NCBI GenBank assembly: GCA_947469885.1
Contig: CANIQT010000016.1
Span: forward strand, 19,213-83,212
DNA length: 64,000 nt
DNA from: Bacteroidota bacterium
GTDB lineage: Bacteria; Bacteroidota; Bacteroidia; 2-12-FULL-35-15
Reading direction: 5' to 3'
Numbering within the stretch: position 1 is the stretch's first letter; each line of letters starts with the position of its first letter. A program made the translations under genes and the position numbers. Below are positions 1 to 56,089 of this stretch, in pieces. The notes beneath the pieces were generated by a model. That model was not told the DNA's origin and ran no database searches. It worked only from the letters and a program-made list of their open reading frames with translations.

Positions 1-1
1 G

Positions 2-1432
2 AACCAAATTTATAAAAGCTATAACGATGAGTTGACAATGAAAATTAATGTGGACTCAATACCTAAAAATGTGTTGCCCGTTTTCGATGTCGATTTTTCT
101 AAATTCTTTTTTGTGGACACAACTGTTACCCAGGCAAAATCAACCGATAGTATATTGAAATTACAAATCGAAAATCTTAAACTGGCTCACAAACCATTAA
201 GTGACATAAGATTAAACACACAGTTGCGTTATAACTATTACGATTTGGTAAATAGTATATACAGCCGTAACTTTATGTCAGCAGGTATAGGGGTTTCGGT
301 ACCAATTCCATTGCGAATAAAAGCAAACAAAAATTTGGTGAATGCTCAGGCAAAACTTTTGGAGTTCGACAGAAAAGAAGATTCCAAAAATAAGCAAACA
401 GATTTACTGAATTCATTTTATGAGTTTAGATATAAACTCAAACAATACAGTAATTTTTATGAAAAAAGAAAAAAATATGAAGAGTTAATACGTATTGAAA
501 GGGTGAAAGAAAAATTCGGAGATATGGAATTTAATCCTTTAACAGCCCTTAACCTGCTCGATGAAATGCTTTCAACTGATATTGAAATGCTGGACATTCA
601 ACAACAAATGTATTTACAACTGCTAGATATTCATTCGAAAATACCAAGTGCTGATATTTCAAAAATCATAAAACCATACAAAATGGATACGCTTGCTATG
701 TCACCAGAAAAAATAAACAGAAGTATTTATATATGGTCAGACGCGCAGACAAAATATGAATCATCGTACATTGCAGAATATTTACGATTGAATAAAATTT
801 CTACTGCAATTTTATCATTGAAAAAAGATAATGACAATAAATCGGCAGGCAATGTACTTATCGGCAAATTAAATTCGAAAGGAATAAAAGTAGAATTATT
901 AATTGGTAACAATAATTTACTTACTGCTTCGAATCCTGAACAAATGCTTGAATCGAGCCTTGCTGGGTTGGATACAAAAACATTGACTGCGATCCATCTT
1001 GATGTAGAGCCACAAGCAATGAGTGATTGGAATACTAACAGGGAAGATTATTTGCAGAAATATTTAGCCCTTCTAAAAACAGCAAAACAATTCTGCACGC
1101 AAAATGGTTTACAGTTAAGTGTTTCTATTCCTGTATTCTTCCCAGAGGAAACATTAAAAGAAATTTATGCTCAAGCTGATAAGGTATATATAATGGCATA
1201 CGAGCATAAAGACTCAGATTATATTGTGAGGAAAGTAAAAGAAGAACTGGATGTTGACGCAAGCAAAACCATCATTGCTATTCGGGCAAAAGATTTTAAC
1301 GATAGGAATGAATGCGAAAATTTAATTACAGAATTAAATCAATTATTAACAACACACAGTTTTGCAATGCACGATTTCGAAACATTTGTAAAGTTGGATG
1401 AAATTAGCGTTAATAAAAATAATAAGAAATAA
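2..1432 (+). CDS. 5'-truncated ORF: TolC/outer-membrane-factor-like helical region fused to a TIM-barrel glycoside-hydrolase-like C-terminal domain
   Basis: The frame is open from nt 2, with no stop before the TTG at 32, so the true start lies left of the window. The N-part is heptad-rich and helical (LQIENLKLAH, LLDEMLSTDIEMLDIQQQMYLQLLDIH). The C-part has IHLDVEP ... VYIMAYE, which resembles the GH18-type DxDxE / MxYD pattern. It is the first gene of a tightly packed 4-gene + strand operon. Confidence 0.4.
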   Translation, partial: NQIYKSYNDELTMKINVDSIPKNVLPVFDVDFSKFFFVDTTVTQAKSTDSILKLQIENLKLAHKPLSDIRLNTQLRYNYYDLVNSIYSRNFMSAGIGVSVPIPLRIKANKNLVNAQAKLLEFDRKEDSKNKQTDLLNSFYEFRYKLKQYSNFYEKRKKYEELIRIERVKEKFGDMEFNPLTALNLLDEMLSTDIEMLDIQQQMYLQLLDIHSKIPSADISKIIKPYKMDTLAMSPEKINRSIYIWSDAQTKYESSYIAEYLRLNKISTAILSLKKDNDNKSAGNVLIGKLNSKGIKVELLIGNNNLLTASNPEQMLESSLAGLDTKTLTAIHLDVEPQAMSDWNTNREDYLQKYLALLKTAKQFCTQNGLQLSVSIPVFFPEETLKEIYAQADKVYIMAYEHKDSDYIVRKVKEELDVDASKTIIAIRAKDFNDRNECENLITELNQLLTTHSFAMHDFETFVKLDEISVNKNNKK

Positions 1433-1449
1433 ACCAAAACTAACATATC

Positions 1450-2577
1450 TTGAAAAGTATAGATTTTAAAAGAAAAGGCTCTGCAATAAGAGTTATGAAC
1501 GAAGATACCAAAAAAGTAAAATACAATTGGGACCGCGTAGTTTATATTGTATTTATTATTGGTGCTCTTGTATTTTTAAGTTATTATGCCGTTAACAAAC
1601 TGTTTTATATAAAAGCCGATGGACAGGTTTTATATGAGAACGTTATTATTCGTTTAACTGACGATTGTCGTATCTTGTCGTATCAAAAGAAAGAAGGAGA
1701 TACGGTAAAAGCAGGCGACTCTCTATTTGTTTACACCCTTGACAAAAACGATTTGAATGGAGGAAACGGTGGTGGTGGGATGAACGGCAAAATAAAAGGA
1801 ACAATTAACGATACTACCTATCAAACACAGTCGGATTGGAGAGAAAAAGAAAAATTTGCATTGCAACGAAAAATGGGAGATAATTCAATTGAAGTTACCC
1901 AGTTCAACTCATTAATAAAAAGTTTTGAATCAGAAATTGTAAGATTGCAAAACGAAGTGGTGTTAGATGTTTTGCCTAAGAGTAGATTGGAGTATGTTCA
2001 AAATGAATTGACAAGACTGAAAACAAATATTGAGAAGTTGAAAAGCGAAAATAGTCAATATGCAGGCTTGATTGCTAAACTAACCAAAGAACAAAATGAA
2101 GAGAAAGAAGCTGTAATTAAAAGTACAAGAAATGCAAGTTTAGCTGGTGTTGGAATTGGAGGAAACGGAGGAGATGGCGAAGACCAAGACAGTACAAAAG
2201 TATTCTTTTCACCTATCAGTGGAACAGTTACTAGAATTTATACGCAACAATTTGAAGTGGCTTTGAAATCAGATCAGATATTGGCTATTCACAAAAACAC
2301 TCCAATGTACATTAAAGGCTTTTTTGATCAAGAGGATATGAGTTACTTTAAAGAAGGTGATATGGTTAATATAGAATTCCCTGATGGAACAAAAAGTACA
2401 GGATTGATAAGAAGATTTTATTATGCTACCTATTCATTACCGGATGAATTTCAGAAACGTTATGAACCTACCACCAGAACTATATCAGCGGATATTTACC
2501 CAGTTGATGAATCGGAATATAAACACTGGAAATCTTTTTATAAGTTAGGCGCCAAAATTACGAAATACAAATATTAG
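1450..2577 (+). CDS. HlyD-family periplasmic adaptor / membrane-fusion-like protein
   Basis: It has an N-terminal TM helix (VVYIVFIIGALVFLSYYAV) and a biotinyl-lipoyl-like hairpin (KKEGDTVKAGDSLFVY). It also has a long coiled coil (EIVRLQNE...LTRLKTNIEKLKSEN), a C-terminal beta domain and two Gly-rich linkers. It uses a TTG start 17 nt after the upstream stop. Confidence 0.6.
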   Translation: MKSIDFKRKGSAIRVMNEDTKKVKYNWDRVVYIVFIIGALVFLSYYAVNKLFYIKADGQVLYENVIIRLTDDCRILSYQKKEGDTVKAGDSLFVYTLDKNDLNGGNGGGGMNGKIKGTINDTTYQTQSDWREKEKFALQRKMGDNSIEVTQFNSLIKSFESEIVRLQNEVVLDVLPKSRLEYVQNELTRLKTNIEKLKSENSQYAGLIAKLTKEQNEEKEAVIKSTRNASLAGVGIGGNGGDGEDQDSTKVFFSPISGTVTRIYTQQFEVALKSDQILAIHKNTPMYIKGFFDQEDMSYFKEGDMVNIEFPDGTKSTGLIRRFYYATYSLPDEFQKRYEPTTRTISADIYPVDESEYKHWKSFYKLGAKITKYKY

Positions 2578-2603
2578 AACATAATAACTTAAATACTGTA
2601 ATC

Positions 2604-4037
2604 ATGTCTTTAAAAATCGTTCCTCAAAACGTAGAAATAAGAAACAATAAAATTGAATTTGAAAATCTTTTGTTTTTTATTATTGATAGCAATAGCAATA
2701 CAAAAATTGAACCTTTAATAGGTTATGATGCGATTATTATTGACGCTAAAGATGCTGATTTTGCTCAGCTTGTGCTTCGGAAAATACGAGGTCACTATAA
2801 CCCTGAATTTTATTTAAAGCCTGTTTTTTTAATTAATTATAAAGAATCGAAAGACCCTATTCTACATACCATGAATGATGGTTTTATTCATTCATACGAT
2901 CAGCTAAAAGAAATTGCAGATATAGCAAAACAATTGTTTTTGAAAACTACTCAATTAGATTACCAACCGGTTGCCACTTTCGAAGCACAAATAATTAAAA
3001 AAGTTTTAAATTACATGTATACGCGTGATTTAAAAACGCTAAAACCAATTCCTGATTTAAATTCCGTTATAGGATATACCTACCCCGAAATATCAATAAA
3101 TTTTGATTCTACTGAAGAATCGCAAGTTCTTGAAATACTGGAATGGGGAGAAAAAGAAGGTTTAATTTGGCCTGATTTTTACGAACGTATTTATTTATGT
3201 AATCAATGTTCAGGAGGGTTTTTGAGTTATCGAGAAGTTTGTCCGCATTGCAATTCATCTAATTCGAGTGCTCAAGATTTAGTTCACCATTTTCCTTGTG
3301 CATACATTGGTCCCATATCTGATTTCAGAAATAATGTCGATAATTCACTCACGTGTCCGAAATGTAATAAAGCGCTTCGTCACATTGGTGTAGATTACGA
3401 TAAACCTTCCATAATTCATCACTGCAATAATTGCGATAAAAACTTTCAGGATTTTTTTGTTAGGGCTAAATGTATTTCTTGTACTCAGGATGTGGAGGTA
3501 CAATACTTGATTCCAAAATCAATTAACATTTATAAACTTACAAAACGTGGAAGAACTGCAGCAGCTAATGGATTCCTTTCGAGTGGAAAAGAGGTGGACG
3601 ATATATTTGGCACACTCAGCATGCCTGTTTTCAAAACAATGCTTCACTATGAAATAGAACGAATAAAAGAAAACACAGAACAAAAGTCAAGTATTGCCAT
3701 TATAAATATTGAAAATATCCTAGAGTTATATAAGAAAATTGGAAAAAAAGCAGAAAAAACTGTTCTGGAATCCGTAGTAAATCTTATAAGAGAAAATATC
3801 AAACCGACTGATTTTATGGCGTTTGAAAACTCTACAACTTTGTACATGTGTTTAATTAACAATGATTTTATTCAAACAGAATCGGATTTAACAAAACTAA
3901 AATCATTGATAGAAAAACTCATAAAAAATAATTTCAACGATTTTGAAGTAAAAATTAATTTCAAGGCAAGTTTACTTCAACCATTTAATAAATCAGAGTT
4001 CCAATTAGATGAACTGACAAAAGAGCTATTTGATTAA
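2604..4037 (+). CDS. Cys-rich (zinc-ribbon) regulatory protein with receiver-like N-terminus and degenerate GGDEF-like C-terminus
   Basis: Four CxxC pairs are present (CNQCSGG..CPHCNS; CPKCNK..CNNCDK; CISCTQ) around HHFPCAYIG and LRHIGVDYDKP. The N-part resembles a CheY-like fold (AIIIDAKDADFAQLVLRKIRG...PVFLIN). The C-part follows the GGDEF-domain layout (IAIINIENILELYKKIGKKAEKTVLESVVNLIRENIKPTDFMAFENSTTLYMCL), but FENST sits where GGDEF is expected. Confidence 0.4.
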   Translation: MSLKIVPQNVEIRNNKIEFENLLFFIIDSNSNTKIEPLIGYDAIIIDAKDADFAQLVLRKIRGHYNPEFYLKPVFLINYKESKDPILHTMNDGFIHSYDQLKEIADIAKQLFLKTTQLDYQPVATFEAQIIKKVLNYMYTRDLKTLKPIPDLNSVIGYTYPEISINFDSTEESQVLEILEWGEKEGLIWPDFYERIYLCNQCSGGFLSYREVCPHCNSSNSSAQDLVHHFPCAYIGPISDFRNNVDNSLTCPKCNKALRHIGVDYDKPSIIHHCNNCDKNFQDFFVRAKCISCTQDVEVQYLIPKSINIYKLTKRGRTAAANGFLSSGKEVDDIFGTLSMPVFKTMLHYEIERIKENTEQKSSIAIINIENILELYKKIGKKAEKTVLESVVNLIRENIKPTDFMAFENSTTLYMCLINNDFIQTESDLTKLKSLIEKLIKNNFNDFEVKINFKASLLQPFNKSEFQLDELTKELFD

Positions 4038-5344
4038 TGCGTTTTATTGACGAATTTATTAATTACATGTCTTCGGTGGATGCGGCAAAACTATTCCGAA
4101 TGTTTTGGTTCTTTTTCATATTTGAGTTTTTTCGATTTTTCCTTGTTGAAATTTCAACAATTATTTTCTGGAAGTTTGACAGTATTTTCAGAAAAAAAGG
4201 GATTGCGGACGCCCGACTCTCTCTCATAAAAAACCAACCCCTCGTTTCCATTATTGTTCCCGGCCGAAACGAAGGAAAACATATTTATAAACTTGTTAAT
4301 TCACTCAAAGAGCAAACCTATCAGAATTTCGAATTAATTGTCATTGATGATGGATCTGATGATGATACTGCAGCAATTTGTCGAAATTTAGAACATAGAG
4401 GAATGATTACTGCATTTTACAGGAATGATGTGAGAGGAGGTAAAGCTTCGGCTGCCAATTTAGGTTTACGATTTGCTAGGGGTGAATTTATTGTCCATTT
4501 TGATGCTGATTGCTCCTATGACCGTGATGCTATTGAAAATATACTTGTTCCTTTTTATTATAATCCCAAAATTGGTGCAATTGGTGGAAATATTCAAGTC
4601 CGAAACTATAAAGAAAGTTTATGCGCAACATTGCAGGCACTTGAGTATTACGATACAATTTCAATCGGACGTATTACAACAGGTGAATTGGGGATATATC
4701 GTGTAATATCAGGTGCGTTTGGTGCTTTCAGAAAAGAAGCTCTTGACAGACTAGGTGGTTGGGATATTGGGCCTGGATTGGATGGTGATATAACAGTTAA
4801 AATCCGTAAATTAGGGTATAAAATTCACTTTGAACCAACAGCAGTATGTCAGACAAATGTACCCATAACATTTAATCGCCTCATCAAACAGCGTCTTCGT
4901 TGGGACAAGTCCTTGATACGATTTCGTTTAAGGAAACATAGGGATGTTTTTTTTCCAAACGATTCGTTTAAATTTTCAAATTTTATTTCATTCATGGAAA
5001 ATGTAACATACAATTTAATACTAAATATAAAATGGTATTTCTATTTATTGGATATGGTGTTTAATTTCACTAGCCAATTAATTTTTATTATCCCAATGAA
5101 TATTGTGTTATATACTGTAAATAATTTTATGAAGTTTCTTGTGTTCTCTCCTTTTAGAGACAGGAAGAATGAAGGGATCACCTATTTCCTTATTTATATT
5201 CCCCTTATGGTTTTTTACTTCGGATATTTTTTACGGATTTTAAGAACTGTAGCTTATGTGCAGGAAGTATTCTTCAAAGCATCTTACAAAGATGAGTGGA
5301 ATCCTGCAAAATCATCCCGCCAAGCAAAAGCTTTAAAGTTGTAA
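4037..5344 (+). CDS. Processive family-2 glycosyltransferase (PgaC/NodC/cellulose-synthase-like polysaccharide synthase)
   Basis: Motifs seen are SIIVPGRNEG, VIDDGSDDDT, HFDADC and the QxxRW motif as QRLRWDKS. TM helices flank the catalytic domain on both sides. The start codon overlaps the upstream stop (TAATG). Confidence 0.8.
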   Translation: MRFIDEFINYMSSVDAAKLFRMFWFFFIFEFFRFFLVEISTIIFWKFDSIFRKKGIADARLSLIKNQPLVSIIVPGRNEGKHIYKLVNSLKEQTYQNFELIVIDDGSDDDTAAICRNLEHRGMITAFYRNDVRGGKASAANLGLRFARGEFIVHFDADCSYDRDAIENILVPFYYNPKIGAIGGNIQVRNYKESLCATLQALEYYDTISIGRITTGELGIYRVISGAFGAFRKEALDRLGGWDIGPGLDGDITVKIRKLGYKIHFEPTAVCQTNVPITFNRLIKQRLRWDKSLIRFRLRKHRDVFFPNDSFKFSNFISFMENVTYNLILNIKWYFYLLDMVFNFTSQLIFIIPMNIVLYTVNNFMKFLVFSPFRDRKNEGITYFLIYIPLMVFYFGYFLRILRTVAYVQEVFFKASYKDEWNPAKSSRQAKALKL

Positions 5345-6058
5345 TCATTTACCAATAATAAAAATAGTGGGTCGTTTATTAATATCTGGTAATTGTTTTT
5401 TCCACTCCTGAACGCTTTTCGTTTTTATAAACTCAGTTGGTAATGTTATATCGGATGCGACACAAATCATGCTATTAGTATCACAACTCGAAAGAATGTC
5501 CTCTATCAAATGTAAATTGCGGTAAGGTGTTTCAATAAAAATTTGCGTTTGATTTTTTTGTTTCACTAAACGTTCCAATTCTTTTATTTTAGAAACTCTT
5601 TCCGAACGCTCTTTAGGTAAATAACCATTAAATGTGAAATTTTGCCCATTCATTCCGCTTGCCATTAATGCAAGTAATATTGATGAAGGGCCAACCAAAG
5701 GAATTACCTGAATGTTATTTTTATGAGCTAGTTTAACTATAACTTCTCCTGGGTCAGCAATTGCAGGACAGCCAACTTCTGAAATTAATCCAATATTTTT
5801 TCCAATTGCAATCGAATCTAAATAATGCTTTACTTCATTTGCTAAAGTGTGTTGATTCAAAGGATGCAACACAATTTCGTTTAAAGATTTCTTTATCCCG
5901 ATTTTTTTTAGAAAATGTCTAGCTGATTTTTCATTTTCAACAATATACTCATCAATTAAATTAACCAAACTATTAATTTTAATAGGAATTACATCTGAGG
6001 TTTCCCCAGTATCTCCAAGAGTTGTTGGAATTAAATATAATTTTCCTTTTACACTCAT
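5345..6058 (-). CDS. RsmI-like tetrapyrrole-methylase-fold SAM-dependent methyltransferase
   Basis: LYLIPTTLGD, ISEVGCPAIADPG and VIPLVGPSSILLALMASG match the RsmI/YraL family layout. Confidence 0.7.
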   Translation of the reverse strand: MSVKGKLYLIPTTLGDTGETSDVIPIKINSLVNLIDEYIVENEKSARHFLKKIGIKKSLNEIVLHPLNQHTLANEVKHYLDSIAIGKNIGLISEVGCPAIADPGEVIVKLAHKNNIQVIPLVGPSSILLALMASGMNGQNFTFNGYLPKERSERVSKIKELERLVKQKNQTQIFIETPYRNLHLIEDILSSCDTNSMICVASDITLPTEFIKTKSVQEWKKQLPDINKRPTIFIIGK

Positions 6059-6064
6059 CCTTTT

Positions 6065-6532
6065 TTATTTTTTATTTCGTAATATTTGTGCAATAACTTC
6101 ACAAGCATTATTTAGAATTGTAAATACATCTTCGAAACCATCCTCTCCACCAAAATAAGGATCTGGAACCGAAATAAAAGCATTTGGATAAATGATTTCC
6201 AAAATCAATTGTACCTTTTGCTTTTCATTTTTATTTCTTGCCAGTGAAATCACATCAGAGAAATTTGATGAATCCATTACATAAATAACATCAAAATTAT
6301 CAAAATCATTTTCAGAAAATTGCCGTGCTTTTAATTTCGATAAATCAATATTGTGACCTTTAGCATTTTTAATTGTTCGGTGATCGGGATGTTCATCAAC
6401 ATGATAATTCGAAGTTCCAGCAGAATCAACCAAAATATTTAGATTCATTTTTTCCGCCTTATCTCTTAATATTCCTTCAGCAAGTGGAGAACGGCAAATA
6501 TTACCAAGACACACCATCAAAATTTTCGTCAT
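6065..6532 (-). CDS. Low-molecular-weight protein-tyrosine phosphatase
   Basis: It has the CX5R(S/T) P-loop near the N-terminus (VCLGNICRSPLAEG) and a DPYFGG Asp loop. Size is 155 aa. Confidence 0.85.
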   Translation of the reverse strand: MTKILMVCLGNICRSPLAEGILRDKAEKMNLNILVDSAGTSNYHVDEHPDHRTIKNAKGHNIDLSKLKARQFSENDFDNFDVIYVMDSSNFSDVISLARNKNEKQKVQLILEIIYPNAFISVPDPYFGGEDGFEDVFTILNNACEVIAQILRNKK

Positions 6533-6605: not shown

Positions 6606-8039
6606 CTATTGAATAGTAATTTTTTTATTTAACTCATCAATATAATTTTTAAATCGTTTATCTGTATCCATTAAGTTATTTACCGTACGACAGGCGTGTA
6701 GCACTGTTGCATGATCTTTACCTCCACAATGCAAACCAATGGTTGCTAGTGAAGACTTAGTCATGCTTTTTGCAAAATACATTGCAATTTGACGAGCCTG
6801 AACAACTTCACGTTTACGTGTTTTTGATTTCAATAATTCTAATGGTAATTCAAAATAATCACACACCACCTTCTGAATATAATCAATCGACACTTCGCGA
6901 GCTGTATTCTTCACAAACTTATCTATCATTTGCTTTGCCAACTCAATATTTATCGCTTTTTTGTTCATTGAAGACTGAGCAAGCAATGAAATTAAAGCTC
7001 CTTCAAGTTCTCTAACATTTGTAGTAATACTATATGCAAGATATTCAACAACATCTTTTGGTAAATCAATTCCATCTGCATAAACTTTCTTCTCCAAAAT
7101 TGCAATACGGGTTTCCAAACTTGGTGTTTGTAAATCAGCCGCCAAGCCCCATTTGAAACGGGAAAGCAAACGCTGCTCAAAACCTTGCAATTCAACAGGT
7201 GCTTTATCAGCTGTAAGGATTAGTTGTTTTCCTGATTGGTGCAAATGGTTGAAAATATGAAAAAAAACATCCTGAGTCTTTTCTTTTCCAGCAAAATACT
7301 GAACATCATCAATAATTAATACATCAATCATCTGGTAAAAATGAACAAAATCATTTTGATTATTATTTCTTACAGAATCAATGTACTGTTGAGTAAACTT
7401 TTCGGACGAAACATAAAGTACAGTTTTTCCAGCATATTCATTTTTTATCTGAATTCCTATCGCGTGTGATAGATGGGTTTTACCCAAACCAACCCCTCCA
7501 TAAATCAATAAAGGGTTAAAAGAAGTGCCCCCTGGATTCTTTGAAACTGCAAACCCAGCAGAACGCGCTAATCGGTTACAATCTCCCTCCACTAAATTAT
7601 CAAATGTGTAATTCGAATTTAATTGAGATTCAACATTCACTTTTTTCAAACCAGGGATAATAAAAGGATTGCGAATACCATTCTGATTCATTTCTATCGG
7701 CATATTCACCGATGGGTTTTTTAATTCCTTTTTATTAGTAGTAGGTATTTTAACTGTATAAGGTTTGGAAGTATTATTATAGTTATTCTCCATAATAATA
7801 CTGTACTCTAATCTTCCTTCGGTACCCAACTCCTTTTTAATTGTTTTTTTGAGTAGCGTAATATAATGCTCTTCCAACCATTCATAAAAAAACTGACTAG
7901 GAACTTGAATTGTCAACACACTGCTACTTAGTTTTACTGGCTTTATTGGTTCAAACCAGGTTTTATAACTTTGTGTACTTACGTTGTCCTTTATTATGTC
8001 GAGACAATTCTGCCATACTTTTGTAAATGATTTCTCCAT
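6606..8039 (-). CDS. dnaA: Chromosomal replication initiator protein DnaA
   Basis: It has Walker A (GGVGLGKTHL), Walker B (LIIDDVQ), the sensor region and the C-terminal DnaA-box-binding domain (VQARQIAMYFAK...GGKDHATVLHACRTV). Confidence 0.95.
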   Translation of the reverse strand: MEKSFTKVWQNCLDIIKDNVSTQSYKTWFEPIKPVKLSSSVLTIQVPSQFFYEWLEEHYITLLKKTIKKELGTEGRLEYSIIMENNYNNTSKPYTVKIPTTNKKELKNPSVNMPIEMNQNGIRNPFIIPGLKKVNVESQLNSNYTFDNLVEGDCNRLARSAGFAVSKNPGGTSFNPLLIYGGVGLGKTHLSHAIGIQIKNEYAGKTVLYVSSEKFTQQYIDSVRNNNQNDFVHFYQMIDVLIIDDVQYFAGKEKTQDVFFHIFNHLHQSGKQLILTADKAPVELQGFEQRLLSRFKWGLAADLQTPSLETRIAILEKKVYADGIDLPKDVVEYLAYSITTNVRELEGALISLLAQSSMNKKAINIELAKQMIDKFVKNTAREVSIDYIQKVVCDYFELPLELLKSKTRKREVVQARQIAMYFAKSMTKSSLATIGLHCGGKDHATVLHACRTVNNLMDTDKRFKNYIDELNKKITIQ

Positions 8040-8491
8040 TCGGTGGTTAGTGTGTATAATATGTGTATTTTATTAATATCGTGTAAATGCTCTGTTTTAA
8101 GCTATTGCGCTGTAAATATATACAACTTTATTTATTTGGAGTTAATTATCTGAACTTTATTTTTAAAAAAAAATAAAATAAATATTGTCAGTTAAAAAAT
8201 TTGTTTTATGAACTTCAATAATTCAAATTTCAAATTAATAATAAGTGAAGATTAAAATCAAATTACCTGACACTCCTTTAAAAATGCTATTTTTACAAGT
8301 GTTTCGACACTATTAAAGATTTTTTAATAAATCTAAGTAAAAAAAATGTATTTTTATTTACGGGTACAATTATAAGTATTAAAATGAAATTTAAGAGAAT
8401 AAAAATCAAAAAAAATATTTTTATTTATTTGGTTTTAGAAAGAAATAAAATTGTACTTTATCAACATTTTAAAAACTAAAAATCGAAGAAA
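8040..8491. other. Candidate oriC / dnaA upstream spacer
   Basis: A 452-bp very AT-rich non-coding spacer next to dnaA with long A/T tracts. It holds only 8/9 matches to TTATCCACA (tgtgtataa at 8051-8059, ttatcaaca at 8458-8466) and no perfect box. Confidence 0.3.
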
Positions 8492-55864: not shown

Positions 55865-56078
55865 ACCCGAAAGCATTGAATTGTTCAGTATGGCAGGTCT
55901 TCTGACTTGTTCCGGTTTTTAACGCCTTCCCGTATTTTGAATTTCAAATTTAAAATTTCAAATTAGATACAGTGGCAAGAATGATAAAAACTAAAAAAGA
56001 ACTTACAGCATCGGGAAATGTCCAGGTTTTTCACCTGATTCCCTTTTAATTCTTCGATAAAGAAGAAACCAAATTGCG
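55865..56078 (-). promoter_or_regulatory. Cobalamin (B12) riboswitch
   Basis: The minus strand reads AAAAGGGAAtcaGGTGaAAaaCCtgGaCatttCCCGatgCTGTAAg ... tGCCACTGtat..acGGGAAGGCg ... AAGTCAGAAGACCTGCC. The last element is the B12 box at 55892-55908. Confidence 0.85.
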
Positions 56079-56081
56079 AGG

Positions 56082-56089
56082 CAAAAGTA
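56082..56089 (-). promoter_or_regulatory. Candidate -7 box (TACTTTTG) driving the riboswitch-receptor transcript
   Basis: It matches TAnnTTTG on the minus strand immediately 5' of the riboswitch. Confidence 0.35.

Follow-up and report, generated by a model that had tools for sequence, protein, structure and literature searches.

Gene content and conservation of the locus

The stretch of DNA analysed here (the window) comprises 64,000 nucleotides of contig CANIQT010000016.1 from a Bacteroidota bacterium. Its first 5.3 kb hold a cassette of four open reading frames (ORFs) on the forward strand, which encode a putative outer membrane factor (OMF) of the TolC type fused to a glycoside-hydrolase-like TIM barrel (ORF1), a predicted HlyD-type periplasmic adaptor or membrane fusion protein (MFP; ORF2), a candidate regulatory subunit (ORF3), and a family-2 glycosyltransferase (GT2) that resembles PgaC and IcaA (ORF4) (Table 1). 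An earlier note, made from the letters of this DNA alone, had read the four genes as an exopolysaccharide operon with the parts of a tripartite efflux pump. The layout that it gave is exact: 17 nt separate ORF1 from ORF2, 26 nt separate ORF2 from ORF3, and the stop codon of ORF3 overlaps the start codon of ORF4 by 1 nt (TAATG), an arrangement from which translational coupling of the last two genes is predicted. The G+C content of the operon region (~31-36%) is similar to that of its surroundings.

The ORF1 reading frame is open from nt 2 up to its stop codon at 1432, and its 5′ end lies beyond the edge of the window. A full-length ORF1 protein from public assemblies (P0001; 705 aa) is 100% identical to the part within the window, which places 229 aa upstream of the window edge. 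On a matching 89-kb lake-metagenome contig (L001), ORF1 opens the operon and starts 126 nt after a gene for an unrelated 316-aa GT2. The start of ORF2 is ambiguous, being either the TTG at 1450 or, according to other gene callers, the ATG at 1495. A search of sequencing runs found DNA of the region in freshwater and lake metagenomes only.

In order to survey the distribution of the system, one genome per species was scanned for relatives of the ORF1 barrel, which occur in 207 species genomes and in varied genomic contexts. The best 80 of these 207 genomes are all Bacteroidota (Crocinitomicaceae, Salibacteraceae, Vicingaceae, Bacteroidales, and many unclassified Bacteroidia), and cultured carriers include Brumimicrobium oceani, B. 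glaciale, Salibacter halophilus, Crocinitomix catalasitica, and species of Fodinibius and Balneola. The order OMF part, barrel, ORF2, ORF3, and ORF4, with short gaps, recurs across the surveyed loci, nearly all misses falling at contig ends. For the 43 species loci whose 8-kb flanks are complete, every ORF was assigned to a gene family by clustering. The four cassette families are present in 42, 42, 42, and 41 of these loci, always on the same strand and in the same order, and the arrangement is therefore not a matter of chance; the co-conservation that an operon of this kind presupposes is strict. The next most common gene family is found in nine of the 43 loci, and because no fifth family is widely kept, the unit consists of exactly these four genes, set in many different neighborhoods. 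ORF4 is the most conserved of the cassette proteins (53-95%), and ORF1 and ORF2 are the least conserved. At one locus (L083, 11222-12328), ORF1 through ORF3 are present and no ORF of at least 120 aa stands in the place of ORF4, which may reflect gene decay or an assembly problem. A metagenome-assembled genome labelled Candidatus Nomurabacteria carries an orphan 262-aa barrel protein (L039, 7905-8693) without the other three genes nearby.

The modules also occur in other arrangements. Two loci (L088 and L089) have a stand-alone barrel gene directly preceding an ORF2-like adaptor gene, and the Balneolaceae (Fodinibius, Balneola, and Gracilimonas) carry a split form of the system in separate, adjacent genes (L090, 6845-15100; L091, 480-9628). 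These encode, in order, an orphan receiver, an OMF (486 aa), a barrel lipoprotein (271 aa), an adaptor with a C-terminal SPOR domain, a 109-aa protein equivalent to the N-domain of ORF3, a protein in which a receiver domain (REC) precedes the TackOD1 and degenerate GGDEF domains found in ORF3, a GT2 with 50% identity to ORF4, and a further lipoprotein of 432 aa. The persistence of the same set through fusion and fission argues that the modules work together.

Table 1. Positions of the cassette genes and of their predicted domains in the window.
Feature	Position (nt)	Strand	Remarks
ORF1, OMF/TolC-like part	2-703	+	C-terminal ~234 aa of a ~460-aa domain inside the window; N-terminal 229 aa, including the signal peptide, upstream
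ORF1, C-terminal (β/α)8 TIM barrel, glycoside-hydrolase-like	704-1432	+	HLDVEP at 995-1012; MAYE at 1193-1204
ORF2, HlyD-type periplasmic adaptor (membrane fusion protein), predicted	1450-2577	+	Single N-terminal transmembrane anchor
ORF3, soluble cytoplasmic regulatory subunit (predicted)	2604-4037	+	N-domain, TackOD1, degenerate GGDEF fold
ORF3, N-domain	2649-2939	+	aa ~16-112
ORF3, TackOD1	2988-3539	+	aa 129-312
ORF3, degenerate GGDEF fold	3606-4034	+	aa ~335-477
ORF4, PgaC/IcaA-like processive family-2 glycosyltransferase (putative synthase)	4037-5344	+	

A PgaC-like synthase and a HlyD-type adaptor

ORF4 matches the Pfam model Glycos_transf_2 with an E-value of 1.7e-29, and its best and sole full-length curated match is TIGR03937 (PgaC_IcaA), at 186 bits against an equivalog cut-off of 422. 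It aligns with E. coli PgaC at 29% identity over 388 aa (E 1e-42), collinearly and including the membrane regions, and retains the motifs DDGS104, DAD156, LDGD248-250 (aligned to PgaC TEDID, with the catalytic Asp), and QRLRW285. Hydrophobic segments at residues 19-43, 340-358, and 381-402 flank the catalytic domain. With a DxD motif, the catalytic Asp, QxxRW, and flanking transmembrane helices, ORF4 bears the marks of a processive membrane GT2 synthase, as the earlier note had proposed from the QxxRW motif. We classify it as PgaC-like and not as PgaC because its score lies far below the equivalog cut-off and because the Pga partner genes are missing. The models for NodC (69.5 bits), Chitin_synth_2, and cellulose synthase also match. 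GT2 enzymes invert, so the product of ORF4 would be β-linked, and its affinities to PgaC and chitin synthase make a polymer based on N-acetylhexosamine (HexNAc), either chitin-like or similar to poly-N-acetylglucosamine (PNAG), a reasonable guess.

The match of ORF2 to HlyD_3 (25.6 bits) exceeds the cut-off of 22.2, and six of ten ORF2 homologues score at or above the cut-off for the same model; RND_mfp (E 7.5e-7), EmrA, and the biotin-lipoyl domain are matched weakly. A single transmembrane segment spans residues 30-48, and a coiled-coil hairpin is suggested by weak coiled-coil matches. ORF2 can be assigned on these features to the HlyD family of membrane fusion proteins, in agreement with the adaptor role first proposed for it. 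The protein carries two glycine-rich low-complexity inserts, NGGNGGGGMNG (aa ~100-112) and GVGIGGNGGDGED (aa ~233-247), which are unusual among HlyD-family proteins. Comparison of the ORF1, ORF2, and ORF3 sequences with PDB chains yielded nothing useful, except for a weak match of the ORF1 barrel profile that is described below.

A putative, divergent outer membrane factor fused to a glycosidase-like barrel

Outer membrane factors of the TolC type are trimers with a 12-stranded β-barrel and a long α-helical tunnel; they carry a signal peptide, have a mature size of ~450 aa, and normally contain two OEP repeats. Completed with its upstream part, ORF1 has a signal-like hydrophobic segment at residues 7-25, and the ~460 aa that precede the barrel correspond to the size of an OMF. 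The Pfam OEP model (PF02321) matches 20 of 35 diverse ORF1 relatives, with a best E-value of 1e-13 and mostly over the second repeat (aa ~260-430), where P0030, P0088, and P0113 exceed the gathering cut-off. In P0088 and P0243 the match falls in two stretches, and one NCBI record names an ORF1 relative a TolC family protein. At the level of the family we accept, with moderate to good confidence, that ORF1 is a divergent TolC/OMF protein. Several relatives depart from the domain plan of ORF1: P0241 and P0288 have two tandem TIM barrels, P0243 and P0305 carry an N-terminal propeller-like extension (BNR or PSII_BNR), and P0320 and P0332 contain a SPOR domain and ~500 extra residues between the OMF part and the barrel.

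The C-terminal ~240 aa of ORF1 (residues ~465-705, nt 704-1429) are modelled by AlphaFold2 with high confidence (pLDDT 95, pTM 0.92) as a barrel of eight β/α units. Conservation was analysed in the 33 diverse sequences from which the model was built, and residue numbers are those of the domain. The invariant residues are Trp11, Asn70, the β4 motif His98-Leu-Asp100-x-Glu102-Pro103, Ser141, Pro143, Met164, Tyr166, Phe198, and His223, and Glu167 and Asp224 are nearly invariant. In the model, strands β1 and β3 through β8 carry the conserved residues at or just past their C-terminal ends. The C-terminal strand ends form the catalytic face of TIM-barrel enzymes, and from this clustering the domain looks functional. 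The two motifs quoted in the earlier note, HLDVEP and MAYE (in YIMAYE), are thus real and conserved.

Assignment of the barrel to a known family is less straightforward. A Foldseek search of the PDB places GH18 chitinases on top (E 1e-7, TM-scores of 0.57-0.65), followed by GH84, GH191 (rank 31), and generic TIM barrels. No glycoside hydrolase family threshold in Pfam is passed: the GH18 model matches three of the 33 members, at best with 21 bits (cut-off 29.6), and Spherulin4/GH135 matches one of them with 20.2 bits (cut-off 30.2). The GH18 alignment sets barrel residues 76-167 on profile positions 88-182, a span that includes the DxE and YE motifs; the β4 motif H-L-D-V-E provides DxE only, and the full GH18 motif DxxDxDxE has no counterpart. 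The combination of DxE on β4 and an aromatic-acid pair on β6 is reminiscent of the substrate-assisted catalysis of GH18-type enzymes on β-linked N-acetylhexosamines, and an Asp on β4 with a Glu on β6 also fits enzymes of the GH114/135/166 type. Since the motifs suit both groups, we call the barrel an unclassified glycosidase-like domain. Of the GH18-like character first attributed to it, the fold and the pair of DxE and xYE motifs stand, whereas family membership does not, the GH135 and 'GH97-like' signals being equally weak; on the model, the barrel is of the glycoside hydrolase type by fold and not a member of GH18. Comparison with PgaB by hhalign gave a probability of 0.3% and no profile similarity. 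The barrel profile does match PDB entry 10yv_A (E 0.004) over ~90 aligned residues, with LDVEP in common. This 275-aa structure was deposited as 'Putative GH97 from Cellulomonas fimi' but is much shorter than a true GH97 could be; among solved structures it may be the closest relative of the barrel, and a literature search for a paper on it found none.

The earlier note had placed hydrolysis at the exit duct. The C-terminus of TolC is located at the periplasmic equatorial domain, and a barrel attached to it would most likely lie within the periplasm, alongside the tunnel, rather than at its exit. In a search of a representative sequence library, the best 150 matches to the barrel all belong to the same family, with ~1000 more distant matches beyond them, and the family spans more than 1500 sequence clusters. 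Among 140 barrel-carrying representatives in this library, 118 are fusions of an OMF to the barrel, two have tandem barrels, and ~19 consist of the barrel only, some of the latter with signal peptides or lipoboxes.

A TackOD1 protein with a degenerate GGDEF fold

ORF3 had been described simply as a Cys-rich regulator. The Cys motifs are present, and the protein can be specified further as a chain of an N-domain, a TackOD1 domain, and a degenerate GGDEF domain. The match to TackOD1 (PF18551) reaches 175.6 bits (E 1e-51) against a cut-off of 32, and the Cys/His pairs are found at residues 199/202, 213/216, 229/232, 251/254, 274/277, and 290/293. These five CxxC motifs and one HxxC motif constitute the published signature of the domain (PMC5847659). 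In the AlphaFold2 model of ORF3 (pLDDT 84), the last ~150 residues superpose on GGDEF domains with TMt values of 0.65-0.78 and a root-mean-square deviation of 2.3-3.5 Å, and PF00990 is matched directly by a few ORF3 relatives. NSTTL stands in place of the GGDEF motif, and ORF3 is consequently expected to be unable to make cyclic di-GMP (c-di-GMP). At the position of the RxxD I-site ORF3 reads KPTD; among 35 sequences the Asp alone is invariant and the first position varies. ORF3 contains no transmembrane or hydrophobic segment. Its N-domain (~110 residues) matches the free-standing 109-aa protein of the Balneolaceae locus L091 (hhalign 98%). We considered a degenerate receiver as an identity for this domain and rejected it at the sequence level, hhalign comparison with two REC domains giving a probability below 10%. 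The split form in Balneolaceae argues that TackOD1 with the degenerate GGDEF domain is the output end of a signaling protein that acts on the synthase.

Relation to known systems

Two precedents combine a synthase, a HlyD-like adaptor, and a TolC-type protein. The first, from cyanobacteria, was mentioned in the earlier note and is borne out by the literature: cellulose secretion has been proposed to run through XcsA, the HlyD-like XcsB, and TolC, together with the endoglucanase XcsC (Maeda et al., 2018, as summarized in PMC12430437). The Xcs system so described resembles the cassette in having a GT2 synthase with a HlyD-like adaptor, genes for the two that are adjacent in several species, a proposed TolC-type exit, and a glycoside hydrolase. 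In Xcs the synthase is of the BcsA type and includes a PilZ domain, whereas ORF4 is PgaC-like and has none; the cyanobacterial TolC is a shared housekeeping protein encoded elsewhere, whereas the OMF here is dedicated and its gene heads the operon; and the hydrolase is a free endoglucanase there, whereas here an unclassified TIM barrel forms one protein with the OMF. The regulator, with TackOD1 and a degenerate GGDEF domain, and the phylum differ as well.

The second precedent is the rhizobial mixed-linkage β-glucan system, in which BgsA and BgsB act with TolC and for which a requirement for tolC was shown in 2026 (PMC13438883; PMC5567048). Its two-gene core of synthase and MFP depends on a TolC-type protein for production and has been interpreted as part of a tripartite assembly, and the synthase is activated post-translationally by a signaling input, features that recall the cassette as modelled below. 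Unlike ORF4, BgsA resembles cellulose synthases and itself binds c-di-GMP, through its C-terminus, and unlike the cassette, the Bgs operon has neither a hydrolase nor a separate regulatory subunit. In both the Xcs and the Bgs system tolC is unlinked and pleiotropic, and the authors do not exclude an indirect role (PMC13438883, PMC12430437).

With PgaABCD and IcaADBC the cassette has in common the type of synthase, ORF4 being closest to PgaC and IcaA, and, with its predicted periplasmic barrel, a counterpart to the periplasmic (β/α)8 hydrolase domain of PgaB. It differs from them in containing no PgaD or IcaD, no CE4 deacetylase, and no PgaA-like β-barrel/TPR porin, and in its TolC-type exit. 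Among synthase co-factors, ORF3 is most like BcsE and PelD, the degenerate-GGDEF partners of the cellulose and Pel synthases (PMC8461298): it is synthase-linked, has a C-terminal GGDEF fold devoid of the catalytic motif, and is soluble and multi-domain like BcsE. In BcsE and PelD, c-di-GMP is bound at a conserved RxxD I-site, of which the ORF3 family keeps the Asp alone; both lack the TackOD1 zinc ribbon, and PelD contains a GAF domain and is anchored in the membrane. The TackOD1 proteins of archaea have the architecture REC-TackOD1 or REC-winged helix-turn-helix-TackOD1, are encoded close to type IV pilus loci, and have no known function (PMC5847659). They present the same five CxxC and one HxxC at the output end of a signaling protein, whereas in the cassette a degenerate GGDEF domain follows TackOD1 and the linkage to a glycan synthase is strict. 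Relative to the Xcs and Bgs systems, then, the PgaC-like synthase, the dedicated operon-encoded OMF, the fused glycosidase-like barrel, the TackOD1 regulator, and the phylum are different. No characterized Bacteroidota equivalent was known to the earlier note and a literature search for a described one found none; the database names of the cassette proteins are mostly 'hypothetical protein'.

A model for synthase-dependent secretion and its alternatives

The cassette probably encodes a self-contained, four-gene machine for synthase-dependent exopolysaccharide production that spans the envelope in the manner of a tripartite efflux pump. In this model, ORF4 in the inner membrane would polymerize a nucleotide sugar into a β-linked, most likely HexNAc-based polymer and thread the growing chain across the membrane; ORF2, anchored by one helix, would bridge the periplasm to the ORF1 channel; and ORF1 would serve as a dedicated TolC-type channel in the outer membrane, with one TIM barrel per protomer at the periplasmic equator. 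The barrel could bind or cleave the polymer, a role that falls elsewhere to BcsZ, the C-terminal domain of PgaB, PelA, or XcsC. ORF3 would act as the regulatory subunit in the cytoplasm, where the TackOD1 zinc ribbon and the catalytically dead GGDEF domain may switch the synthase on upon a signal; in Balneolaceae this could be phosphorylation of the fused receiver, and in Bacteroidota the input may come through the N-domain or a nucleotide ligand. The predicted topology of the four proteins fits such a machine: a signal peptide in ORF1, one transmembrane segment in ORF2, none in ORF3, and flanking transmembrane helices in ORF4. The adjacency and co-conservation of a GT2, a HlyD-like adaptor, and a TolC-type OMF, known here from the genes, bring together the components of Xcs/Bgs-type systems, and because the conserved cassette contains no ABC, RND, or MFS gene, the synthase is the only inner-membrane partner available to the adaptor and the channel.

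Several observations weigh against this model. Neither the ORF1 of the window nor P0001 matches any Pfam model, OEP included, or any NCBIfam model; the NCBIfam TolC models return zero matches to the ORF1 family; and hhalign of the family against E. coli TolC yields a local, non-significant match at the second β-hairpin. A tblastn search of ORF2 against a plasmid collection, aimed at BgsB on pSymB, gave zero matches, and none of the RNA runs searched for the region contains it. The identity of the polymer is a guess, since ORF4 scores far below the PgaC cut-off and no equivalent of the deacetylase, PgaA, or PgaD is conserved, and c-di-GMP binding by ORF3 is doubtful because the canonical RxxD I-site is missing. 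Finally, a barrel outside a sealed adaptor-channel duct could not reach the polymer, a difficulty that the model leaves unexplained and that favors either a path that is not sealed or a function of the barrel in remodeling the wall.

The latter alternative, which we regard as unlikely, leaves the rest of the model unchanged and takes the barrel as a peptidoglycan-binding or -remodeling module that anchors the machine in the wall or opens its path. From outside a sealed tunnel the barrel would have access to the wall, SleL, a lytic enzyme of the spore cortex, stands at rank 3 among the GH18-like fold matches, and the peptidoglycan-binding SPOR domain lies just before the barrel in P0320 and P0332 and is carried by the adaptor in Balneolaceae. 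Profile searches, however, matched the barrel to no known lytic transglycosylase or muramidase family, and the barrel is still linked to the MFP and the GT2 when it is unfused from the OMF. It is also the sole candidate in the cassette for a polymer-specific hydrolase or lyase, an activity with which every synthase-dependent system known to us is equipped.

It is likewise improbable that ORF4 makes short oligosaccharides, as NodC does, or a β-glycan not based on HexNAc, for export as a signal or as a periplasmic or osmoprotective glycan whose chain length is set by the barrel. The modest identity of ORF4 to PgaC, its score below the equivalog cut-off, and its additional matches to the NodC, Chitin_synth_2, and cellulose synthase models would accommodate such a product, as would the absence from the cassette of the deacetylase and porin typical of PNAG systems. 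On the other side, PgaC/IcaA is the best and only full-length match, QxxRW and the C-terminal transmembrane helices are those of translocating synthases, and a wide OMF tunnel with a barrel that looks endo-acting would better suit a polymer.

OMFs and MFPs normally partner ABC, RND, or MFS pumps, and ORF1 and ORF2 could in principle belong to a type I secretion or efflux system as its outer components, with the inner-membrane pump encoded elsewhere, the GT2 and ORF3 being merely co-regulated and, for example, glycosylating the secreted product. This is very unlikely: a direct role of TolC in the Xcs and Bgs systems is still unproven (PMC13438883, PMC12430437), but no ABC, RND, or MFS pump gene is conserved within 8 kb in the 43 fully flanked loci, of which 41 contain the GT2, the cassette moves between contexts as a unit of exactly four genes, and ORF3 and ORF4 appear to be translationally coupled.

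Returning to the secretion machine, it is possible, if somewhat short of probable, that the cassette represents an undescribed class of synthase-dependent secretion in Bacteroidota and Balneolota, in which a synthase-made HexNAc polymer actually leaves the cell through a dedicated TolC-type channel that contains its own glycosidase, and a TackOD1/pseudo-GGDEF protein is the on-switch; if so, this would be the first function assigned to TackOD1. The operon in any case gives a functional context to this domain and to the unclassified glycosidase-like barrel. It also bears on whether TolC-type channels carry polysaccharide directly, and a dedicated channel gene that is first in the operon and co-inherited with the synthase and the adaptor in over 200 species makes clean genetics and reconstitution possible. 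The cassette further draws attention to a putative matrix polymer, so far unstudied, of Bacteroidota that are abundant in fresh water and the sea.

Flanking genes and other features of the window

Upstream of ORF1, a motif of the TAnnTTTG type was spotted by eye ~45 nt before the start codon. A scan for sigma-70 promoters and terminators found fewer sites than in shuffled sequences; the sigma-70 model is uninformative for Bacteroidota. The 316-aa GT2 directly upstream of ORF1 on L001 (8924-9874) is 79-91% identical in closer relatives and absent from this place in distant ones; its conservation exceeds that of the cassette proteins, which makes a housekeeping transferase probable. Farther upstream on the same contig (1-4185, 6-10 kb before ORF1), two genes for GDSL-type esterases and an MBOAT gene resemble polysaccharide O-acetylation modules of the AlgI/AlgJ type; they are left out of the system because they are not kept beside the cassette in other species. 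The upstream GT2, the MBOAT and GDSL genes, and the downstream low-molecular-weight (LMW) phosphotyrosine phosphatase gene were all considered as members of the system and rejected, none being conserved with the cassette.

Downstream, an rsmI-like TP_methylase gene on the reverse strand (5345-6058) abuts the ORF4 stop codon with zero gap and is followed on the same strand by the LMW phosphotyrosine phosphatase gene (6065-6532) and dnaA (6606-8039). The AT-rich stretch after dnaA (8040-8491, ~27% G+C) could be oriC; a scan of it for DnaA boxes located two with one mismatch each (8051 and 8458), without a clear cluster. The sole Rfam match in the window is a full-length cobalamin riboswitch (RF00174, 101.5 bits) on the reverse strand at 55875-56088.

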